Source: Halothiobacillus sp. (GTDB lineage Bacteria > Pseudomonadota > Gammaproteobacteria > Halothiobacillales > Halothiobacillaceae). Taken from it: a DNA stretch of 64,000 bases. Under the pieces are notes generated by a model. That model was not told where the DNA came from. It did not search any database and saw only the letters and a program-made list of their open reading frames with translations. Location of the stretch: contig JAGDVP010000012.1 of the NCBI GenBank assembly GCA_023255735.1, forward strand, positions 105,477-169,476, written 5' to 3'. Positions 3,436 to 15,063 of the stretch are shown here, piece by piece; the first letter of the stretch is position 1, and every line of letters begins with the position of its first letter. A program made the translations under genes and the position numbers.

Positions 3436-4287
3436 ATGCAGGCGGCAAAAATCACGTTTATTGGCGGTGGCAATATGGCAGCGGCGCTGATTGAAGGTTT
3501 GCAAAAAAATCAAGCCAGCATGATGTCTGTAGCGCAGCCCGTGTTGGTGGTGGCCGATCCCTCGGCAGAGCGCCGCGCCTTGCTGGCTGATCTATACGCG
3601 GTTGAAACTTTTGCCGATAGCATGGCGGCGGTCTCTAATGCTGATTTAATCGTGCTTGCCGTTAAACCCAATCACGTTCGCGCCGCCGCCGAGCAAATTC
3701 GGACCAACTTATCGCCGAACCAATTGATTGTTTCGGTGGCGGCGGGCATCACGCTTACTGCGTTGCAAAATTGGCTTGGCGGGCATCAAGCTCTGGTGCG
3801 CGCCATGCCGAACACGCCCGCGATGGTGGGTTCCGGGGCGACAGGTCTCTGCGGGCACCCGGCATTAACGGCCGCGCAACGCAACCTAGCCGAATCTCTG
3901 ATGCGCGCGGTGGGTCTGGTGCAGTGGGTGGCGCATGAGGCAGACATGGATGCGGTTACTGCGTTATCGGGCAGTGGGCCTGCGTACATTTTTCTTGTGA
4001 TGGAGGCCATGCAAGCGGCGGCGGAGCAATTAGGTTTGCCCGCGCAAACTGCAAAATTGCTCACATTAGAAACTGTGCTGGGTGCGGCGCGCTTGGCGAT
4101 GACGGTCGATGAATCGCCCGCGCAGTTGCGTGCACGGGTTACATCCCCGAATGGCACGACAGAGCGCGGGATTGCGGTGCTTGAACAGGCCGGCCTGCGC
4201 GCGGCGTTTGCTCAGGCATTGACTGCTGCGCATCAGCGCAGTGTCGAGCTCGGTGTGCAATTAAGCGAAGATGAGCGTGCATTATGA
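3436..4287 (+). CDS. proC: Pyrroline-5-carboxylate reductase
   Basis: N-terminal Rossmann motif ITFIGGGNMAAAL. C-terminal signature VTSPNGTTERG. Confidence 0.9.
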   Translation: MQAAKITFIGGGNMAAALIEGLQKNQASMMSVAQPVLVVADPSAERRALLADLYAVETFADSMAAVSNADLIVLAVKPNHVRAAAEQIRTNLSPNQLIVSVAAGITLTALQNWLGGHQALVRAMPNTPAMVGSGATGLCGHPALTAAQRNLAESLMRAVGLVQWVAHEADMDAVTALSGSGPAYIFLVMEAMQAAAEQLGLPAQTAKLLTLETVLGAARLAMTVDESPAQLRARVTSPNGTTERGIAVLEQAGLRAAFAQALTAAHQRSVELGVQLSEDERAL

Positions 4288-6681: not shown

Positions 6682-7662
6682 TTAAAATAATTTGGCGCGT
6701 TTGAATAAATAAATTAATAAAACGCCGATTAACGCCAAAATCACGACGAAAAGAGAAAACGACCAACTCGGTTCTTGATTGCCTGGAATGCCGGCAATGT
6801 TGACGCCAAATAAGCCGGTAATAAAAGTTAATGGCAGAAAAATGGCCGACAGTGCGGTTAAGAAAGTGAGCTGCTTGTTGAGCTCATTGCTTGAACGGGT
6901 GTTCATCTGTTCTTGAATAATCCGCATTTGATCGCGTGAGGCATCTAATACTTCGATATATCGTGTAAGGCGGTTTTCTGCTTCACGTAAGCGCTGGATG
7001 GTTGGTTTTTTCAGCCAACTTAAATGGCTGGCAATCACCGAAAGCATGGCATCCCGTTGTGGGCCTAAATAGCGACGCAGGGTTAAAATCATAGTGCGTA
7101 GATCGGCTAAATCCCGATCTGACACAGGTTCAACCTCATCACTGAGGAGCATGCTTTTCTCGTAGTTATCGGTGAGCTCATCAATCTCATCAATGGTGTC
7201 GAGCATGTTGTCGTTTAAAAGTTCAATCAACCGCGTAACAAATTGCCCCGCGTCTTTGGGGGCATTATTGGATTCCATATCCCGCTGCATCGTATTGACG
7301 GCGCGCAAGGTGCGCAAATGGGTGCTGATAATGCGGCGCGGGGTAATCCAAAGCCTTATGCCAATCATGTCATCTGGCTCTTGGCCCGGGTTGTGATTAA
7401 TGCCACGCAAGGTAAGTAGCAAGCCTTGATCTAAAATTAAGGCGCGCGGGCGGGTCACTTCGGCTAATAAGGTGTCTTGCACTGTGCTATCAATGTCGGC
7501 TTGGCTGCGAATCCAGTCTTGCACTTCAGGCTGACTATAATTTAAATGAATCCAGACTGGCCCCGGGCTTGGGGTGTTATCAGATAAGGGCAGGAGTTGT
7601 GCACTGCCATCGCCTTGCATATGCCAAGTGTAAAAATCAGTTGCCACAGCTTCTAGTCTCAA
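6682..7662 (-). CDS. zntB: CorA-superfamily zinc transporter ZntB
   Basis: C-terminal TM pair with the ZntB-type motif TGLFGVNIAGIPG. The N-terminus aligns with E. coli ZntB (FYTWHMQGDG vs FAWMLDGRGG), which favours the TTG start at 7662 over ATG 7620. Confidence 0.8.
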   Translation of the reverse strand: MRLEAVATDFYTWHMQGDGSAQLLPLSDNTPSPGPVWIHLNYSQPEVQDWIRSQADIDSTVQDTLLAEVTRPRALILDQGLLLTLRGINHNPGQEPDDMIGIRLWITPRRIISTHLRTLRAVNTMQRDMESNNAPKDAGQFVTRLIELLNDNMLDTIDEIDELTDNYEKSMLLSDEVEPVSDRDLADLRTMILTLRRYLGPQRDAMLSVIASHLSWLKKPTIQRLREAENRLTRYIEVLDASRDQMRIIQEQMNTRSSNELNKQLTFLTALSAIFLPLTFITGLFGVNIAGIPGNQEPSWSFSLFVVILALIGVLLIYLFKRAKLF

Positions 7663-7695
7663 TAGTGAGGGTTAAACTTAAACATAAGCTTGCGC

Positions 7696-8286
7696 CTATT
7701 CTTTGACCGCACGATGAATGGTGTACTCTTGCCCTTGTTTTATTTTGTCATAATTGCCAAATTGCTCTTTAAAGGTGCGTTTAAAATAATCCCGCAAGCC
7801 ATTAATGCTGACAAACCAAATATCCCCGCCGGGGGTTAAGTTTTGCCATGCATCTAATAACATAATCGACCAAAGTTCTTTGCCGACTTTAGCTGGCACA
7901 TTCGACACAATGCGGCTGAGCTGTGTGCCTTCTACGGCACTCAAGCCGTTGCTTAATTTAACTTGGACATTGCTTAACCGATTCCGGGTGGCGTTTTTGG
8001 CGGCAAAATCACAGGCAACAAAATCTTTATCTAACAAAATCACCTGTGCGGTGGGCGCAGCCTTGGCAAGCGTGAGACCGATGGGACCATAACCGCAGCC
8101 CAAATCGACGACAGTTTGATTGGGCTTGGGCGAATCCAAGAAATCGAGCAGCAAGCGGGTGCCGTCATCAATTTCGCGCGGAGAGAATAAGCCCCACGTT
8201 GAATGCAAAATCAGCTCTTGCCCCATTAATTGAACGTGTTGGATAAGGTCTTGGCGCAGCAGATTAATTTCTTGGGGCGTGGGCAT
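7696..8286 (-). CDS. Class I SAM-dependent methyltransferase (RsmC/RsmD-like small domain)
   Basis: SAM-binding motif VVDLGCGYGPIGL, then ILLDKD and SNVPAK in place of the NPPxH motif. Substrate unknown. Start set at ATG 8286. Confidence 0.7.
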   Translation of the reverse strand: MPTPQEINLLRQDLIQHVQLMGQELILHSTWGLFSPREIDDGTRLLLDFLDSPKPNQTVVDLGCGYGPIGLTLAKAAPTAQVILLDKDFVACDFAAKNATRNRLSNVQVKLSNGLSAVEGTQLSRIVSNVPAKVGKELWSIMLLDAWQNLTPGGDIWFVSINGLRDYFKRTFKEQFGNYDKIKQGQEYTIHRAVKE

Positions 8287-8439
8287 AATAATAAATCTCA
8301 AGGGCGTGACGTGGATTAAGTCTTGCCTTATAAAAAAGCCAGATAGAAAACAGCAGCGGTAGTTAAAAAAGTGGGCAAATTCTAGCGCGATTAACCTAAC
8401 TTTTGGCGCACCAAGCGTAAATGGTTCGTTAATGGAGGT

Positions 8440-8898
8440 CTAGCCGGGTTGGCAGCGGCGACAAGTGCCATGGAGTTCGATCGATTGACGGGTTATTTTG
8501 AAGTGTTGTTGATCGCTCATCTGGGCAACCAGCTGATTTAACGCCTCGCTTGATTGCTCGTTAATTGTGCCGCAGGTATCGCAAATCATCAAAACTGCCT
8601 GATGCGCAATTTCAGGATGATCGCAGCCAATAAAGGCATTCAGGCTCTCGATTCGATGAATTAAACCATGCGCCAGCAAAAATTCCAGCGCACGATAAAT
8701 GGTGGGCGGTTTGATGAGGTTGTCCGCGGTGGATAGGCGGGAAATTAAATCATAGGCCTTGGTGGCTTCATGCCCCGACCATATTTCAGACAGCACCGCT
8801 TTTCGGATTGGGGTAAGCCGCGCGCCGCGCGCTAAACAGACCTGCTCGGCGTGTTCAAGTGCGGTTCCGGCACAATGGGTATGGTTTGAGCAGTGCAT
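8440..8898 (-). CDS. zur: Fur-family zinc uptake regulator Zur
   Basis: Aligns with E. coli Zur (ARLTPIRKAVL, AYDL, KPPTIYRALEFLLAHGLIHRIES, ICDTCG ... HGTCRRC). Start set at ATG 8898 (MHCSNH). The ORF extension to 8970 has no homology. Confidence 0.8.
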   Translation of the reverse strand: MHCSNHTHCAGTALEHAEQVCLARGARLTPIRKAVLSEIWSGHEATKAYDLISRLSTADNLIKPPTIYRALEFLLAHGLIHRIESLNAFIGCDHPEIAHQAVLMICDTCGTINEQSSEALNQLVAQMSDQQHFKITRQSIELHGTCRRCQPG

Positions 8899-9154
8899 TA
8901 CGGGGTGTTCACTCCAAGAGGCGGAAGTTGGTTTGATTGTACCTGTGCGGCGAGGTTCTGTAGACCGCAAACTGGATTCTTTATGAGTTTGGGTGGCAAG
9001 CGTTGCCCAAACCCAAGTTAATTCAGGGTGTTATTGAAAAGTTCTATGATTTGGGTATTGAATTTATTCATCACACTGACCACCATTGAGATTGAACGAT
9101 TCAATGCAGGTGCCGGTTTTTGCGGTACCCAAATCAATAAGAGTGAGAATTACC

Positions 9155-10180
9155 ATGCAAGCCAATCCATCTGTTCTGCTGCCCCGGCGGCGTTTTCTTC
9201 AAACGGCAGCTTCGGTCGCGGGCTTTGCCATTTTACCGATGGCCTATTCTGCACACGTTTTTGCGGCAGAGCAGTTGGTTATAGCCGGCCCCAAGGTTTC
9301 GGATATTGCGCCCACGCGGCTTGCCGAGCAGGTGTATTGCATTATTTCTCCTTGGGGTTTCCCTTCGGTTGAAAATCAGGGAATGATGAGTAACGTGACT
9401 TTTGTGACGACACAAAAAGGCGTCGTGGTCATTGATAGCGGCGCCTCACGGCAAATTGGTGAAATGGCGTTGCGCCAAATTCGTCAAATCACCCAAAGCC
9501 CCATTGTAGCGGTGATTAATACCCATTATCACGGCGATCATTGGCTGGGTAATCATGCCTTTGTGAATGAAAACCCAGATGTGCCAATCTATGCCCATGA
9601 AAAAACCATTTCGGCGATTAAGACCGGGCAAGGCCAGTATTGGACTAATTTAATGGAGCGTTCTACCGATAACGCTACCTTAGGCACCGTGGCCACGCCG
9701 CCAAATAAGGTCGTAGCGCATGGCGATGTATTGGATTTTGGCGATACCAAAATCAAAGTGCATTTTTATGGCACCGCGCATACGCCCTCTGATATTAGCC
9801 TTGAAGTAGTGGGGCACAATATTGTGCACGTGGGAGATGTGGCGATGGATAACCGGATTGCCTTTATGGATGATGGCAGTTTCCGTGGTACGTTCAAAAA
9901 TTTTGATGCCTTGGAAGCTGCCGTGCCCGGCGCGCTGTGGATTCCAGCGCATGGCAACCCCGGCAAGCAAGTGCTCGCTCGCAATCGCGAACTCTTTGAA
10001 GGGATTTATCAATCGGCCGAAAAAGCGGTGCAGGATATGTCGGGTCAAGAAGGCGCTAAAGCCTATGCCTTGGCCGATCCTCGGGTGAAAAAATATGCGC
10101 CTGTCACCAAAGGTTTTGATGAAAATATCGGCAAATATAGCTCGCTTGCTTATCTTGAGGCGGAGTCAGCTTCATTTTAA
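9155..10180 (+). CDS. Tat-exported MBL-fold metallo-hydrolase (SoxH-like or persulfide-dioxygenase-like; exact activity unknown)
   Basis: Twin-arginine signal (PRRRFLQTAASVAGFAILP...AHVFA) and MBL motif INTHYHGDHWLGN, plus later His/Asp ligands (HTPSD, HVGD). Start set at ATG 9155. Confidence 0.75.
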   Translation: MQANPSVLLPRRRFLQTAASVAGFAILPMAYSAHVFAAEQLVIAGPKVSDIAPTRLAEQVYCIISPWGFPSVENQGMMSNVTFVTTQKGVVVIDSGASRQIGEMALRQIRQITQSPIVAVINTHYHGDHWLGNHAFVNENPDVPIYAHEKTISAIKTGQGQYWTNLMERSTDNATLGTVATPPNKVVAHGDVLDFGDTKIKVHFYGTAHTPSDISLEVVGHNIVHVGDVAMDNRIAFMDDGSFRGTFKNFDALEAAVPGALWIPAHGNPGKQVLARNRELFEGIYQSAEKAVQDMSGQEGAKAYALADPRVKKYAPVTKGFDENIGKYSSLAYLEAESASF

Positions 10181-10343
10181 TTCAAGTTTCGTAAAGATGA
10201 CCTGAATGCTCTAACGTAAGTCATCGGCGTTCTTAATAGAGCAACCGAATGGTTCAATAGAACATATCGATTGGTCAAAAAGCCGTCGCGTAAGCTAAAA
10301 AGATAACGTATCTATCGATAAGGCTTAATTTAAGGAGTTTTGC

Positions 10344-10880
10344 ATGTCTGGTTCTTCCCCCGCCTGTTCTCAAGTTAGACCCTTATGGCCGCCGTTGGTT
10401 GCCGGTTTGGTGTTGGGCTTAGTGCTTATTTTAACGTTTGTGCTCGTGGGCAATGGCGTGGGTGCCTCGGGTACGTTTGCCAGTATTGCCGCATGGCTTG
10501 GCTTGCAGGTGGCGCCGGCGGTAACTCAATCCAACGGGTATCTTGGGCCCATGGTGGCCAATGGCGCCAATCCCTTTGCCAGCTGGATCGTGGTCGAGGT
10601 AATTGGTGTGGCCATCGGTGCCCTGTTGGCTGCAGTCAGTGCGGGGCGATTCAAAATTAAAGTGGATGTTGGCGCCGGAAAAATCGGCGTTATCCCCCGT
10701 TTGTTGCTCGCATTGGTGGGTGGCTTGCTGGCAGGGTTGGGTTCACGCTTTGCGGCGGGCTGCACCAGTGGCGTCGGGCTGTCTGGCACGGCCATGTTGG
10801 GCATGGCGGGGTTCATTTTTTTAATTGTTTTTTTCGTGGTGGGCTTAGCTGTTAGCGCCCTGATGCGGAGGGTTTGGTAA
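10344..10880 (+). CDS. YeeE/YedE-family sulfur-compound transport membrane protein (half-size, subunit 1)
   Basis: A polytopic 178-aa protein with the conserved Cys loop RFAAGCTSGVGLSG typical of the YeeE/YedE (TsuA) family. RBS AAGGAG lies 7 nt upstream. Confidence 0.8.
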   Translation: MSGSSPACSQVRPLWPPLVAGLVLGLVLILTFVLVGNGVGASGTFASIAAWLGLQVAPAVTQSNGYLGPMVANGANPFASWIVVEVIGVAIGALLAAVSAGRFKIKVDVGAGKIGVIPRLLLALVGGLLAGLGSRFAAGCTSGVGLSGTAMLGMAGFIFLIVFFVVGLAVSALMRRVW

Positions 10881-11554
10881 TGGATTATGGTGTAGCGGGT
10901 ACGGCTTTAGCCTCGGGCATCCTTTTTGGTTATGTGCTTGAACAAGCGGGTTTTGGTTCTCCCTGTAAGTTAACAGCGCAGTTTCGCTTAACCGATTGGT
11001 CGGTTTTTAAAGTGATGTTTACGGCAATTTTGGTCGCATCCTTGGGGATTTTATTGTTGCAATCGGGTAATTATTTTGGCTCGACCGGGTTTTTTGTGCC
11101 CACCACATTCTTTTGGGCCACGGCAGTAGGTGCTGCACTGATTGGCGCCGGCTTTGCTGTTGGGGGATATTGCCCCGGTACGTCGGTGGTCGGGTTTATG
11201 TCGGGCAGAATAGATGGCTTGGTTTTTATGCTCGGTATGGTGCTCGGCATTTTAGTCTTTGCCTCGATCTTCAATGCGCCCATCACGCAAAGCATTTTGC
11301 ACACCGCCCAAATCAGCGCTAAAACGATTCCGCAATGGCTGGGCGTTTCTCCGTGGATTGTGTGGGGTGCGATGGTTGTTATGGCGATTGCCGGGTTTTG
11401 GTTGGGTCGCATGATGGAGCAGCGCTCGCACGGCGTGCTCACAGCGGATGATATTGTCGAAAGCATCGATCCGACCCTTGATTCTGCGAAGCAAGGTAGC
11501 GCGGTAGATGGCAATTTGGGGGAGGGATCGGTACCTCTTGTACGCGGTGTTTAA
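10880..11554 (+). CDS. YeeE/YedE-family sulfur-compound transport membrane protein (half-size, subunit 2)
   Basis: N-terminal GILFGYVLEQAGFG and Cys loop GGYCPGTS. TAATG overlap with the preceding gene implies translational coupling. Confidence 0.8.
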   Translation: MDYGVAGTALASGILFGYVLEQAGFGSPCKLTAQFRLTDWSVFKVMFTAILVASLGILLLQSGNYFGSTGFFVPTTFFWATAVGAALIGAGFAVGGYCPGTSVVGFMSGRIDGLVFMLGMVLGILVFASIFNAPITQSILHTAQISAKTIPQWLGVSPWIVWGAMVVMAIAGFWLGRMMEQRSHGVLTADDIVESIDPTLDSAKQGSAVDGNLGEGSVPLVRGV

Positions 11555-11611
11555 ATCGGTTGCTTGAAATCTAGCACGATTGTTTTAATTCTATTTTTGG
11601 AGTGATTTGTG

Positions 11612-11884
11612 ATGAGCATTAATGAAAAAAGTTCTGCCCCTATTAAATCCCGTAAATTTTTGGCAGTTTCCATTCCAGCCTTAGCGGTCGCCCTGTCTGG
11701 CGCGGCTATTCTTTCGTCGCCCATTGATGCCTTATCGATTATTCCTGCGGCACAGGCTCGCGGGGATAACCCGTGCGCCCCAGCGAGTCGTGGCGGGAAC
11801 CCGTGCGCCCCAGCGAGTCGTGGCGGGAATCCTTGTGCACCAGTCAGCCGCGGTGCGAATCCTTGCGCACCGGGTGGTCGTTAA
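11612..11884 (+). CDS. Small exported protein: Sec-type signal peptide plus four tandem R-G-x-N-P-C-A-P-x-(S/G) decapeptides
   Basis: GGAG RBS 9 nt before ATG 11612. N-region KSRK, hydrophobic core FLAVSIPALAVALSGAAIL, and a possible AQA|RG cleavage site. The mature part is RGDNPCAPAS RGGNPCAPAS RGGNPCAPVS RGANPCAPGG R. The peptide motif is retained although units 3-4 use different synonymous codons. Confidence 0.6.
   Translation: MSINEKSSAPIKSRKFLAVSIPALAVALSGAAILSSPIDALSIIPAAQARGDNPCAPASRGGNPCAPASRGGNPCAPVSRGANPCAPGGR
11759..11878 (+). repeat. Four 30-nt tandem repeats in frame, encoding the NPCAP decapeptides
   Basis: Unit boundaries are 11759, 11789, 11819 and 11849. Units 1 and 2 share an identical 21-nt run, aacccgtgcgccccagcgagt. 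Units 3-4 are diverged at synonymous positions (cct tgt gca cca). Confidence 0.9.
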
Positions 11885-11967
11885 TTTCGTCGATGTATTT
11901 TGTGATTTTAACGGGCATCGCCGGTTTATCTGGGCATTTCTCTTAATGGGCTTGGATTGGTCGAATC

Positions 11968-12657
11968 ATGGATAAAGTGTATTGCGACTGGCTCGGCACA
12001 CTGCCCGATGCGGCCTTTGATGAGCTCCTATCTTGTGCTGATGAGTTTTTTGCGATTAATCGTGCGCTGATTCACGATCATCAAACCATTTTGACTGAGT
12101 TACTGCGAGATGAATCAGCACTCGTGCCTGTGCGCTGGCAGCATTATCCGAAAGATGATGTGTGCGACCCTGGCAGTGGGGCGATGTTTTACTATCATGC
12201 ACATGATTCAACGGATCGCCCGGGTGACGAGCACGGGCATTTCCATTTGTTTATTCGACCGGATATTGACGCGGTTTTTAGCCATTTTGTGGCGCTTTCG
12301 CTGGATGCGCGGGGGCAAATTCGATCCATATTTACCACCAATCGCTGGGTGACCGATGAGCAAATACGTCCCGCGCAAGCACTTATCGAATTATTACCTG
12401 ATGCCTTTGTGATAGATCGATCTCGCCCATCTTGGTTGGTTGCTCGCTGGCTTATGATGGTGGCGCGTTTGCTTGTACCTCAAATCCAGCAGGCGCTTTG
12501 GTTGCGTGATGGCGCGCTAAATTGGGATGGCGCGCAAGAATTGCCGCAAGCCCTGCTTGAAGATCGATCTCGTCATGTGCTCAGCGAAGTGCCCATTCAC
12601 ATGATTGATGTGCTGCAGATGATCCAGCGTGAGGGGCTTTTGCGTTATCCCCTATAA
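11968..12657 (+). CDS. Hypothetical cytoplasmic protein with a His-rich putative metal site
   Basis: A 229-aa ORF with no signal peptide. It carries a dense His/acid cluster, FYYHAHDSTDRPGDEHGHFHLF. I could not assign a family. Confidence 0.6.
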   Translation: MDKVYCDWLGTLPDAAFDELLSCADEFFAINRALIHDHQTILTELLRDESALVPVRWQHYPKDDVCDPGSGAMFYYHAHDSTDRPGDEHGHFHLFIRPDIDAVFSHFVALSLDARGQIRSIFTTNRWVTDEQIRPAQALIELLPDAFVIDRSRPSWLVARWLMMVARLLVPQIQQALWLRDGALNWDGAQELPQALLEDRSRHVLSEVPIHMIDVLQMIQREGLLRYPL

Positions 12658-12793
12658 AAAAACTTAACTTTTGCGATTATAAAGTTCGTGGTTTGATGAT
12701 GCTATCTTCGGTGAATTGATAGCGTTTGACATAGTGTGGTTAGGGTTGCATCAGTAGCCTAGGTTTTTGAAAATGAAGAAGGAGTTTGGACAA

Positions 12794-13780
12794 ATGAATG
12801 TTAAGAAATTTGTGTTTGTGCCCGTCGTGTTCGCCGCGACATTCGCCGCGCAGTGTGCTTTTGCGGTGGAGGTGCCTGGCCCTTTGGTTGACCCGGCGTG
12901 GTTAAATGCGCACGCGAATGATGTTAAGGTGCTGCAAGTGAGTGGCCCTTTAAAAGATTTCACCACGGCTCCTGAAATGAAAGATGTAAACGGCAAAAAA
13001 GTTGCCGTGACTGTCAGCGGTCATGTGCCCGGTGCTTCATTTGTTGATTTCAAAACGATCCGGGTTGAGCGCGATATCGATGGCAAGAAAGTCAAAGATA
13101 TGATTCCCGACAAAGCCGCGTTTGAGAAACTGGTTCAATCATGGGGTGTGAATAAAGGCCAAGCTATTGTGATTGTGCCCAAGGGGCTGTCGACACCGGA
13201 TATCGATGAAGCGACTCGTTTATATTGGCAGCTTAAGTATTATGGCCAGGACAATATGGCCATTTTGAATGGCGGCATGGCGCAATGGCTGGCCGATGGC
13301 ATGACGGCGTCAACCGATGCACCTGCAGCGACAACGGGAGATTGGGTAGCGACCGCTGAGCGCAAAAATATTTTAGCAACCTATGCGGAAGTGAAGCACG
13401 CCGTTGAACATCCCGGCTCGGTTGAATTTGGGGATGCGCGTCCATCTAACCAATACATGGGCGTGTTCACCAAGCCTAAAGAGTTATCTGGGCATTTGCC
13501 GGATGCCAAAAATGTACCGCCTGACTTGCTAACTTATGCGGATGGCTCTTCTGCTCGTTTCTTACCCAAAGCAAGCTATGAAGCGATGTTCAAACAGGTT
13601 GGTTTGAATCCGGATAAAGAAATTATCGATTACTGTAATACCGGGCATTTAGCTTCGGGTTTGTGGTTTGTCACGCACGAAATTGTGGGTGATAAAAAAG
13701 CCCGTTTGTATGATGGCTCTATCGTCGAGTACAGTATGTATGACGGCGCCAAGATGACTAATCCTGCAAATTTAAAATAA
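12794..13780 (+). CDS. Periplasmic two-domain rhodanese (thiosulfate sulfurtransferase-like)
   Basis: Signal peptide MNVKKFVFVPVVFAATFAAQCAFA and a C-terminal catalytic loop YCNTGHLASG (rhodanese CxxGxxx). GAAGGAG RBS lies upstream of ATG 12794. Confidence 0.8.
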   Translation: MNVKKFVFVPVVFAATFAAQCAFAVEVPGPLVDPAWLNAHANDVKVLQVSGPLKDFTTAPEMKDVNGKKVAVTVSGHVPGASFVDFKTIRVERDIDGKKVKDMIPDKAAFEKLVQSWGVNKGQAIVIVPKGLSTPDIDEATRLYWQLKYYGQDNMAILNGGMAQWLADGMTASTDAPAATTGDWVATAERKNILATYAEVKHAVEHPGSVEFGDARPSNQYMGVFTKPKELSGHLPDAKNVPPDLLTYADGSSARFLPKASYEAMFKQVGLNPDKEIIDYCNTGHLASGLWFVTHEIVGDKKARLYDGSIVEYSMYDGAKMTNPANLK

Positions 13781-13797
13781 GCGATCTATTCCGATGT

Positions 13798-13827
13798 AAA
13801 AACGCCCCGATTTCGGGGCGTTTTTTT
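13798..13827. terminator. Bidirectional intrinsic terminator between the rhodanese gene and the convergent membrane-protein gene
   Basis: The sequence is aaaaaCGCCCCGatttCGGGGCGttttttt. A GC stem is flanked by an A-run and a T-run. Confidence 0.7.
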
Positions 13828-13851
13828 GAGCCAGAGCTTTGAGCCGTGGCA

Positions 13852-15063
13852 TTACGCTGCTTGGGTTTTTGCGTTTGCTGGTGTTGGTTGCGCGTTAAGC
13901 AGCTTCGATTTTAGTTTGAAGAATACCCGAATCGTGATCAATTGCACGGCCATAAATGGCACCATCATGGCAAAATATAGCCAAGAGCCCTGCGCAATGA
14001 TGTGATTATGTGCCAAGCCTAAATTCAGAAGAAACATGCCAAATACAAAAAATGCGACACCGGGGCAAATGAGCGCAAACGAGCCGGCATTGCCTTTATC
14101 GCCATTAATGTAATGCGCAAAATAACCCAAGCGTTTCATCACGGCATACCCAATTAAGCCGAACAAAATTTGCAGCGACACAATCATCATGCTCGATACA
14201 AAAAAACTGCTGTTATTTAAGGGGTGATCAAAGCCTTGATGCAACCCAAGAGTGAGGCGAATCCAAGTAATGCCGAGTAGGGTCAAGATAGGGATCATAA
14301 TCCATAAACTTGGACTGGCCGATTCAGCAATCCCATTGGTCATCATGCTATGAAAACCATTAACGAGTTTAACGATCGTCAGCAGCAGGGCAATGGTGAA
14401 GAAAAAGAGTGAAAGCGCGATAGACACAGCAACCGTGAGCGTGTTGTGTGACATGTATGCGGGTGCAGCCAAACCGACGGCGATCATCGCTAAGGCAAAC
14501 ATCGAAATCATGGGTGCCAAGCTGTTGTTGGCGGTGAAATCAACCTGGCCGCCAACGAGCGCGCGGGTGAAATAGTGCACCAAAATAGTCATGGCATAAA
14601 TGCCGATGGCAAAGAACGCCCCAATCGCCAGCGGAAAGAGCCATTCCACCACGGTCCATAGCCCCGGAACTAACAATGCGCCCAGCACAAACATCACATT
14701 CACCGACATGGCCAGAGTGAGCGGAATGGTCATAAGCCCAATTTCCGCATTACTGTTGAGCAGGGTTTTAAAAGCATCCAGACGCTTAAATTGCGTGTAC
14801 TCCGCAATATTCCACAGCAAGAGTTTGAAGTGAAGCAATGCGAAAAATAAAATTGCAGCAATCGTGAGCCCGACCAAGCTTGCATTCAGCCAATTGGTGC
14901 CAGTTAAAATGCGCCACACATCGCCAAAGGTGACCATGGCACTATTGGGATGGGGCGCCAAAAACATTAAGTAAATAAAAAATGAAACCGAAAGCCCGCC
15001 GGCGCCCAGCGCGGCGAGAAAGTACAGAGGGGAGTAAGCCGCCCCGAGGTTCTTGCGAATCAT
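13852..15063 (-). CDS. Polytopic membrane transporter, family unresolved (possibly TDT/TehA-like)
   Basis: A 403-aa protein that is hydrophobic throughout. I count at least about 10 predicted TM segments by eye and recognise no soluble domain. Confidence 0.55.
   Translation of the reverse strand: MIRKNLGAAYSPLYFLAALGAGGLSVSFFIYLMFLAPHPNSAMVTFGDVWRILTGTNWLNASLVGLTIAAILFFALLHFKLLLWNIAEYTQFKRLDAFKTLLNSNAEIGLMTIPLTLAMSVNVMFVLGALLVPGLWTVVEWLFPLAIGAFFAIGIYAMTILVHYFTRALVGGQVDFTANNSLAPMISMFALAMIAVGLAAPAYMSHNTLTVAVSIALSLFFFTIALLLTIVKLVNGFHSMMTNGIAESASPSLWIMIPILTLLGITWIRLTLGLHQGFDHPLNNSSFFVSSMMIVSLQILFGLIGYAVMKRLGYFAHYINGDKGNAGSFALICPGVAFFVFGMFLLNLGLAHNHIIAQGSWLYFAMMVPFMAVQLITIRVFFKLKSKLLNAQPTPANAKTQAA

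Follow-up and report, generated by a model that had tools for sequence, protein, structure and literature searches.

A conserved five-gene core with a split YeeE/YedE pair, a cysteine-repeat peptide and DUF6969 in Halothiobacillus: a candidate route for sulfur import

Passage of sulfur from periplasmic reactions into the cytoplasm is poorly understood in sulfur oxidisers (PMC11582611), and a row of genes in Halothiobacillus sp. raises the question of whether one such route is encoded in a single compact locus. The row lies at positions 9155 to 13780 of a 64,000-nucleotide stretch of contig JAGDVP010000012.1 (hereafter the window), and the initial annotation read its six co-directional plus-strand genes as one sulfur import/relay row. 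All six open reading frames are present and the sulfur theme stood, but the single six-gene unit did not: the region consists of two units, a five-gene core (10344-13780) and a zur/MBL unit (8440-10180) whose metallo-β-lactamase (MBL)-fold gene is separable from the core. We see an even chance that the core moves reduced sulfur from the periplasm to the cytoplasm, all steps being read from family knowledge and genomic context. The operon would then be a compact, testable candidate route made up of a channel, a loading enzyme, a carrier peptide and a cytoplasmic partner, and it provides a first functional context for DUF6969, a family of 1108 representative clusters encoded at no fewer than 582 loci. 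The genes of the row are as follows.

9155-10180, plus strand: MBL-fold metallohydrolase, predicted to be exported by the twin-arginine (Tat) route and SoxH-like (open reading frame, Pfam and curated family profiles)
10344-10880, plus strand: YeeE/YedE half 1, PmpA type, the C-terminal half of a full-length YeeE (PF04143 profile)
10880-11554, plus strand: YeeE/YedE half 2, PmpB type, the N-terminal half (PF04143 profile plus DUF6691)
11612-11884, plus strand: NPCAP cysteine-repeat peptide, 90 aa, predicted to be exported; leader and four repeat units
11968-12657, plus strand: DUF6969 protein, 229 aa, without a leader (PF22308)
12794-13780, plus strand: tandem-domain rhodanese, predicted to be Sec-exported (PF00581)

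Five genes keep their order as their surroundings change

Conservation of the row was examined by mapping the window proteins onto 80 loci of ~20 kb each, taken around DUF6969 homologues in species-representative genomes; a genome scan confirmed at least 582 DUF6969 loci. Thirteen full loci from five or more families preserve the order YeeE half 1, YeeE half 2, repeat peptide, DUF6969, rhodanese; the initial annotation had called for such a synteny check. These loci belong to Halothiobacillus (L001, L002), Guyparkeria (L005, L006, L008, L009), Thiohalomonadaceae (L003, L013), Ca. Thiodiazotropha (L012), other gammaproteobacterial metagenome-assembled genomes (MAGs; L007, L011) and two Burkholderiales, Tibeticola and a Burkholderiaceae MAG (L056, L067), which carry a variant NPCGP/NPCAP peptide. 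Two truncated contigs (L004, L010) keep the part from the peptide through DUF6969 to the rhodanese. Identities of the core proteins are 42-70% across families, declining to 42-60%, and outside Halothiobacillaceae the flanks are unrelated (for example flagellar genes, priA or a large repeat protein). Because the order is kept while the flanks change, the five genes behave as a discrete module.

Intergenic gaps in the six-gene row measure 163, -1, 57, 83 and 136 nt in gene order. The negative value is a TAATG stop/start overlap between the YeeE halves, visible in the sequence as first described and indicative of translational coupling, and in L012 and L067 the DUF6969 stop likewise overlaps the rhodanese start. 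From the conserved order and these overlaps, 10344-13780 is most likely a discrete five-gene operon. The spacers of 163, 57, 83 and 136 nt fold no better than shuffled sequence, and an Rfam scan for RNA elements within them returned nothing meaningful. No match to the row as a defence system was obtained with PADLOC (0 matches). In the literature searched we found no published description of the arrangement, in line with the view that the combination is undescribed, and the module adds two components without described function, the repeat peptide and DUF6969.

A split YeeE/YedE pair and an exported rhodanese

The putative channel is encoded as two adjacent halves. Half 1 matches PF04143 at profile positions 174-307 (74 bits; Sulf_transp C-half, E 2e-20) and half 2 at positions 3-150 (60 bits; Sulf_transp N-half, E 4e-16), against a cut-off of 27 bits. 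Adjacent genes for a C-half and an N-half correspond to the split PmpA/PmpB layout, a class with members of ~130-230 aa. Half 1 aligns with residues 237-319 of the Spirochaeta thermophila YeeE structure 6LEP, GGC motif included, and its Cys140 (GCTSG), aligned to that motif, is invariant in all 18 orthologs. So is Cys98 of half 2 (GYCPGTS), with Cys29 of the same half present in 13 of the 18. The cysteines of PmpA and PmpB correspond to Cys293 and Cys91 of S. thermophila YeeE, and our match of the half-2 cysteine to Cys91 rests on that report, in which Li et al. put forward a heterodimer of PmpA with PmpB working like YeeE (PMC11582611). The thiosulfate transporter TsuA was rejected as an identity for the pair (NF041049 / NF052577, 32-34 bits versus cut-offs of 400-645), and half 1 gave a weak match to YedE/FdhT (34 bits), below the cut-off.

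The last gene of the core most plausibly starts at ATG 12794, which is favoured by an AAGGAG ribosome-binding site and by ortholog alignment. Its product matches PF00581 in two stretches (E 3e-15), and residues 70-318 align to the tandem-domain rhodanese 1UAR (E 3e-22) with the column of the catalytic cysteine, in the loop of the C-terminal domain, matched (YCNTGHLAS versus YCRIAERSS). All orthologs retain a signal peptide, ending AFA|VEVPGP in the window protein, and a C-N-[TS]-G-[HN] loop. On these features the protein is predicted to be a Sec-exported rhodanese of the thiosulfate sulfurtransferase type, as the initial annotation had supposed for its export. A match to ExtH of the selenite/tellurite operon (73 bits) fell below the cut-off.

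The cysteine-repeat peptide and DUF6969 form a recurrent pair

The peptide comprises a leader of ~49 aa ending in AQA, followed by four G-x-N-P-C-A-P-x-x-R units with one cysteine each, and a 30-bp tandem repeat is detected in its gene. No Pfam, NCBIfam or PADLOC family matches it. Differences from unit to unit are mostly synonymous (units 2 and 3 differ by six synonymous codons and one non-synonymous codon), with NPCAP invariant, and since synonymous differences between units outnumber non-synonymous ones, the peptide gene reads as real and under purifying selection. Orthologs hold 6 to 11 units at the same position with leader and frame kept, giving copy numbers of 4 to 11 among relatives. 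Repeat-peptide leaders are ~45-50 aa long in the window (11612-11760) and in six core loci from Halothiobacillus, Thiohalomonadaceae, Guyparkeria and Ca. Thiodiazotropha. Most gammaproteobacterial leaders contain a twin-arginine-like SRRFL or RRLL, and the window has SRKFL, so that the predicted export may proceed by Sec or by Tat, with the choice between them uncertain. In one Guyparkeria MAG (L006, ~3590-3935), a run of 100 N lies between YeeE half 2 and DUF6969, and no repeat-peptide gene was found there. Repeats of 30 bp may break short-read assemblies, and the operon also lends a context to such cysteine-repeat genes.

The gene downstream of the peptide had been described as encoding a His-rich protein. 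The gene exists and its product does contain a histidine cluster, but its identity is corrected here to Pfam DUF6969 (PF22308, E 6e-54, 183 bits versus a cut-off of 27, profile positions 4-201 of 201). Residues H77, H79, E88, H91, H93 and H106 are invariant in a 22-sequence alignment, and the protein has no leader and no conserved cysteine. From the missing leader, DUF6969 is predicted to be cytoplasmic, and the cluster H-x-H...E-x-x-H-x-H...H probably binds metal. An AlphaFold (AF2) model with pLDDT 91.8 and pTM 0.90 gave no fold match among solved structures in the Protein Data Bank (best E 0.63, TM 0.19), and the sequence likewise matched no solved structure; as modelled, DUF6969 is a new fold. 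Members of the family are nearly all stand-alone proteins of 220-290 aa, and no informative domain fusion was found among them, the only departures being a tandem duplication, N-termini that were likely mis-called and a single SH3 tail. The term DUF6969 was not found in the literature searched. Homologues with 83-87% identity to the window protein come from Halothiobacillus MAGs.

Of the 80 loci, 48 have an open reading frame with three or more NPC motifs no further than 3.5 kb from DUF6969, and only one such open reading frame occurs elsewhere in the ~20-kb loci. Variant cysteine repeats are found in three further loci, and one locus has an assembly gap and no repeat gene. Far from being an insertion in the row, as first thought, the peptide forms with DUF6969 the pair that recurs most widely across Proteobacteria, and the breadth of this pairing favours a direct link between both proteins. 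DUF6969 has a YeeE-family gene within 6 kb in 23 loci, a rhodanese immediately downstream in 16 and an FGE-like gene immediately upstream in 24. Eleven loci (Betaproteobacteria, Marinobacter) encode repeats on either side of a SoxA/TsdA-type cytochrome c domain. Four loci have a DUF442 (BLH_phosphatase) domain; in Thioclava, Alcanivorax and Roseibium the repeats stand ahead of it, and a split YeeE pair comes before them. The partners of DUF6969 elsewhere are all sulfur or thiol proteins, and no metal-homeostasis family was found among its recurring neighbours.

Some of these arrangements have a characteristic order. In Thalassospira-like Alphaproteobacteria (24 loci), an exported FGE-sulfatase-domain protein is encoded 70-190 nt upstream of DUF6969, and DUF2336 and a class I cytochrome c are found downstream. 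Most of these loci also have an NPC-repeat gene on the opposite strand, at a greater distance upstream. In three Betaproteobacteria (L019, L024, L026), an NPCAAK/SoxA-haem protein is followed by DUF6969, a DUF302 protein and a full-length YeeE, and then by DUF3179 in L019 and L024; this order links DUF6969 to YeeE in a second, independent arrangement.

The MBL gene pairs with zur

Upstream of the core, the MBL gene is divergent from a regulator gene, with a palindrome between them.

8440-8898, minus strand: Fur-family regulator, Zur-like (PF01475), heading a zur, methyltransferase, zntB-like string
9031-9049, no strand assigned: imperfect AT-rich palindrome between zur and the MBL gene, a candidate Fur-family operator

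The MBL protein (341 aa) matches PF00753 (Lactamase_B) at E 8e-25, contains an HYHGDH motif and has a twin-arginine leader, PRRRFLQ, in agreement with the Tat signal originally reported. Its best curated matches are the SoxH-related families TIGR04559 (141 bits, cut-off 280) and TIGR04558 (SoxH_rel_PQQ; 136 bits, cut-off 300), and the protein is predicted to be SoxH-like and Tat-exported. It had first been likened to a persulfide dioxygenase, an assignment that we abandoned for the ETHE1/Blh type: glyoxalase-II-type models score only 29 bits (GSH_gloB 29.5 bits, cut-off 200.8), compared with ~140 bits for the SoxH-related ones, and the twin-arginine leader predicts export. Two further identities, raised at the outset as possible refutations, were excluded by scores and architecture. 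For a quinoprotein-relay hydrolase, the TIGR04558/TIGR04559 scores lie below cut-off and no quinoprotein gene is found in the row; an alkyl/aryl-sulfatase of the YjcS type has ~640 aa and carries dimerisation and SCP2-like domains at its C-terminus, whereas the window protein, of 341 aa, matches 4PDX over residues 78-139 only.

This gene adjoins the core only in Halothiobacillaceae and is missing from the module elsewhere; it is a lineage-specific neighbour and not a fixed component. Another proteobacterial MAG (L086/L087) has an MBL homologue of 61% identity that runs divergently from a methyltransferase-Fur block and is followed by unrelated genes, with no YeeE row, which argues that the divergent zur and MBL genes are a separate unit. 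The MBL gene, paired with zur, is probably transcribed on its own. The divergence of the row from zur, as initially annotated, is accordingly true of the window, but the arrangement is specific to Halothiobacillaceae. Of seven more distant contexts of the MBL protein, five have a Sulf_transp gene no further away than ~6 kb and two have rhodaneses, which keeps it plausible from gene neighbourhood that this MBL clade is functionally connected with sulfur transport.

The regulator matches PF01475 (E 1e-10) and scores 127 bits against the Zur model NF008646 (cut-off 167), the next best being Fur at 45 bits. Its open reading frame is extendable to TTG 8970, but ATG 8898 fits the orthologs (Guyparkeria alignment) and is most likely the start. 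Together with a small-domain methyltransferase and a ZntB-like CorA transporter, zur forms one minus-strand string (6682-8898) conserved in Halothiobacillaceae. The palindrome at 9031-9049 (TTATTGAAAAGTTCTATGA) lies in a patch conserved in three Halothiobacillus-type sequences, is the only exact match to its degenerate pattern in the window and differs from the canonical Zur box; Guyparkeria has a different palindrome in the zur-MBL region, TTATTTAG-N6-CTAATAA. We regard the window palindrome as a candidate Fur-family operator, nothing more. Family profile scans found no ArsR/BigR-type regulator in the row or its immediate flanks, as had been stated from the start.

The spacer between the MBL gene and YeeE half 1 also differs between genera. 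All four Guyparkeria loci have a conserved GC-rich hairpin, GGCCCG-N9-CGGGCC, after the MBL gene, which may be a terminator or attenuator separating both units; it is absent in Halothiobacillus, where the spacer holds a conserved AT-rich patch. The hairpin and the patch together hint at a separate core promoter.

A candidate route for sulfur import

How could the core move reduced sulfur inwards? The Sec-exported tandem rhodanese would draw sulfane sulfur from thiosulfate or polysulfide, bind it at its catalytic cysteine and hand it to the thiols of the exported NPCAP-repeat peptide. The peptide would serve as a flexible arm, cationic and with multiple thiols, on which persulfide is buffered or carried; it would resemble the SoxY arm but be multivalent. 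The split YeeE pair, as a PmpA/PmpB-type heterodimer with an essential cysteine per half, would conduct sulfur species across the inner membrane. On the cytoplasmic side, DUF6969 could receive or convert the imported species, in the slot that TsuB/YeeD occupies for TsuA; alternatively, it might prepare the repeat protein before export. In Halothiobacillaceae, the SoxH-like MBL protein may regenerate carrier thiols by hydrolysing S-sulfonate adducts, much as SoxH is proposed to release sulfate from SoxY (PMC10045233, PMC11237559). Should the peptide indeed carry persulfide at several thiols, it would add a second design of carrier to that of SoxY.

Several observations weigh against this reading. 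About 28 of the 80 DUF6969 loci have no nearby cysteine-repeat gene. In 57 loci a YeeE neighbour is missing, which implies that what DUF6969 does is not tied to import. Having no conserved cysteine, DUF6969 is no classical persulfide acceptor, and the row has no gene for a cytoplasmic acceptor of the TusA or DsrE type. Internal promoters could lie in the spacers of 163 and 136 nt, the Guyparkeria hairpin stands after the MBL gene, and a sequencing-run search found no RNA run that holds the stretch. The substrate could also be another thiophilic species.

The pairing of DUF6969 with NPC repeats (48 of 80 loci) is more general than its link to YeeE (23 of 80), as would be explained if the mature peptide were the point of the pair, with YeeE and the rhodanese as lineage-specific accessories. 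Before export, the cysteine-repeat protein would in that case be modified or loaded by DUF6969, acting in the cytoplasm as a metal-dependent enzyme or as a dedicated chaperone in a bufferin-like scheme. The missing leader and invariant His/Glu cluster of DUF6969 fit such a role, and the Tat-like SRRFL/RRLL of the long gammaproteobacterial leaders (SRKFL in the window) fits export after a cytoplasmic step. On the other hand, the row holds no known modifying enzyme, DUF6969 is unlike any known enzyme fold, DUF6969 was not found fused to any informative domain, and repeat proteins fused to c-type haem must travel by Sec, unfolded. We consider this explanation, the main alternative, doubtful.

Still less probable is that the poly-cysteine peptide captures a thiophilic metal or metalloid (Zn, Cu, Cd, Hg or selenite/tellurite) under Zur control or in selenium handling. 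Such buffering would account for the divergence of the row from a Zur-like gene that neighbours a ZntB-like transporter, for the candidate operator at 9031-9049, for an MBL protein that is a zinc-type enzyme, and for the similarities of the rhodanese to ExtH (73 bits) and of YeeE half 1 to YedE/FdhT (34 bits), next door to a TsoY-family gene. The zur link, however, is found only in Halothiobacillaceae, the core elsewhere having other flanks, and the zur-MBL block also occurs without the core. No metal efflux, metal chaperone or MerR/CsoR-type gene is present among the recurring neighbours, the selenium-related family scores are all far below cut-offs, and the TsoY gene next to the module is not conserved. 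A single cysteine every ten residues, with no CxxC, His or Met, would moreover be a poor chelator design. Mere adjacency of independent genes with no shared function, to which two spacers of >130 nt and the separable MBL unit might point, is very improbable given that the five-gene order persists across families whose proteins share 42-70% identity and whose flanks change, and given the start/stop overlaps of the YeeE halves here and of DUF6969 and rhodanese in L012 and L067.

Beyond sulfur import by the core itself, we tentatively suggest, as a possibility well short of an even chance, that NPC-type cysteine-repeat arms and DUF6969 constitute an unrecognised two-part system across Proteobacteria, in which DUF6969 is a new-fold cytoplasmic metalloprotein dedicated to exported poly-thiol proteins. 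DUF6969 would modify, load or reset these proteins, or would be the cytoplasmic end of a thiol-based envelope relay, and the front end of the system would vary interchangeably between the rhodanese, a SoxA-like haem domain, DUF442, FGE-like proteins and YeeE. If so, the Halothiobacillus operon is the simplest version of the system, and because its arm is a free peptide, it is the best entry point for biochemistry.

Comparison with known sulfur and thiol systems

The closest parallels in gene content are PmpAB of Serratia sp. ATCC 39006 and the BigR/Blh operons, the latter known from Xylella and Agrobacterium for sulfide detoxification. Like the core, they have two short YeeE/YedE halves side by side with one essential cysteine each, and, as here, the halves lie close to an MBL-fold protein and sulfurtransferase-type domains. 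The analogy to bigR/blh drawn in the initial annotation stands for this gene content, but it fails for the enzymology because the MBL protein is SoxH-related and not of the glyoxalase-II type (29 bits). In contrast to these systems, the window row has no ArsR/BigR/PigS regulator, its MBL protein is predicted to be Tat-exported and SoxH-like instead of a cytoplasmic persulfide dioxygenase, its rhodanese is periplasmic, and the cysteine-repeat peptide and DUF6969 are added.

A second parallel is SoxYZ with SoxAX, SoxB/SoxH and SoxT1A, in which, as in the core, an exported cysteine on a flexible arm is presented to periplasmic sulfur enzymes. There too a YeeE-family protein, the YeeE-like importer SoxT1A, brings sulfur into the cytoplasm (PMC11582611), and a SoxH-type MBL protein is proposed to hydrolyse the adduct off the carrier (PMC10045233). 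The likeness extends to other lineages, where NPC repeats flank a SoxA/TsdA haem domain. The peptide nonetheless shows no similarity in sequence to SoxY or SoxZ (it matched no family), carries many cysteines per chain instead of one and has no folded carrier domain, and the loading enzyme here would be a rhodanese in place of SoxAX.

The thiosulfate uptake system TsuA-TsuB (YeeE-YeeD) resembles the core in joining a YeeE-family channel with conserved cysteines and a small cytoplasmic partner in the same operon. It differs in that the channel is split into two genes here and no TusA-like YeeD is present; DUF6969, the candidate for the partner's place, lacks a conserved cysteine and has an unrelated fold.

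Bufferins are exported cysteine peptides matured by MNIO/DUF692 enzymes in the context of copper stress. They share with the core a small exported Cys-rich peptide beside a cytoplasmic protein of unknown chemistry, and differ in their repeat motif and in the sulfur-transport context seen here. Family profiles found no MNIO (DUF692) or DUF2063 partner among the ten genes in 6682-15063, and a bufferin-type cluster of ribosomally synthesised, post-translationally modified peptides was rejected on this ground.

Downstream flank

Two features border the rhodanese gene.

13798-13827, no strand assigned: bidirectional intrinsic terminator, common to the rhodanese gene and a convergent membrane-protein gene
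13852-15063, minus strand: TsoY-family polytopic membrane protein, Cys form (NF047644), a neighbour outside the conserved module

The terminator hairpin, AAAAACGCCCCGATTTCGGGGCGTTTTTTT, folds strongly on both strands (plus strand -19.8 kcal/mol, z -3.4; minus strand -21.8 kcal/mol, z -4.7), as expected from its first description as bidirectional. Among DNA runs, the stretch itself is present only in two hot-spring metagenome runs from one sample, a third run of which contains next to none of it.

The TsoY-family protein scores 485 bits against NF047644 (cut-off 150) and has CPGV where selenoprotein TsoY has a UxxV motif (PMC13188914). It was rejected as a member of the module: related loci are without it except for a 73-aa remnant in L002. 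The 'Tso' operons include a rhodanese/DsbD fusion and a protein with an HSGNPxU motif (PMC13188914), and that motif is a loose echo of the GNPC repeat in the peptide.

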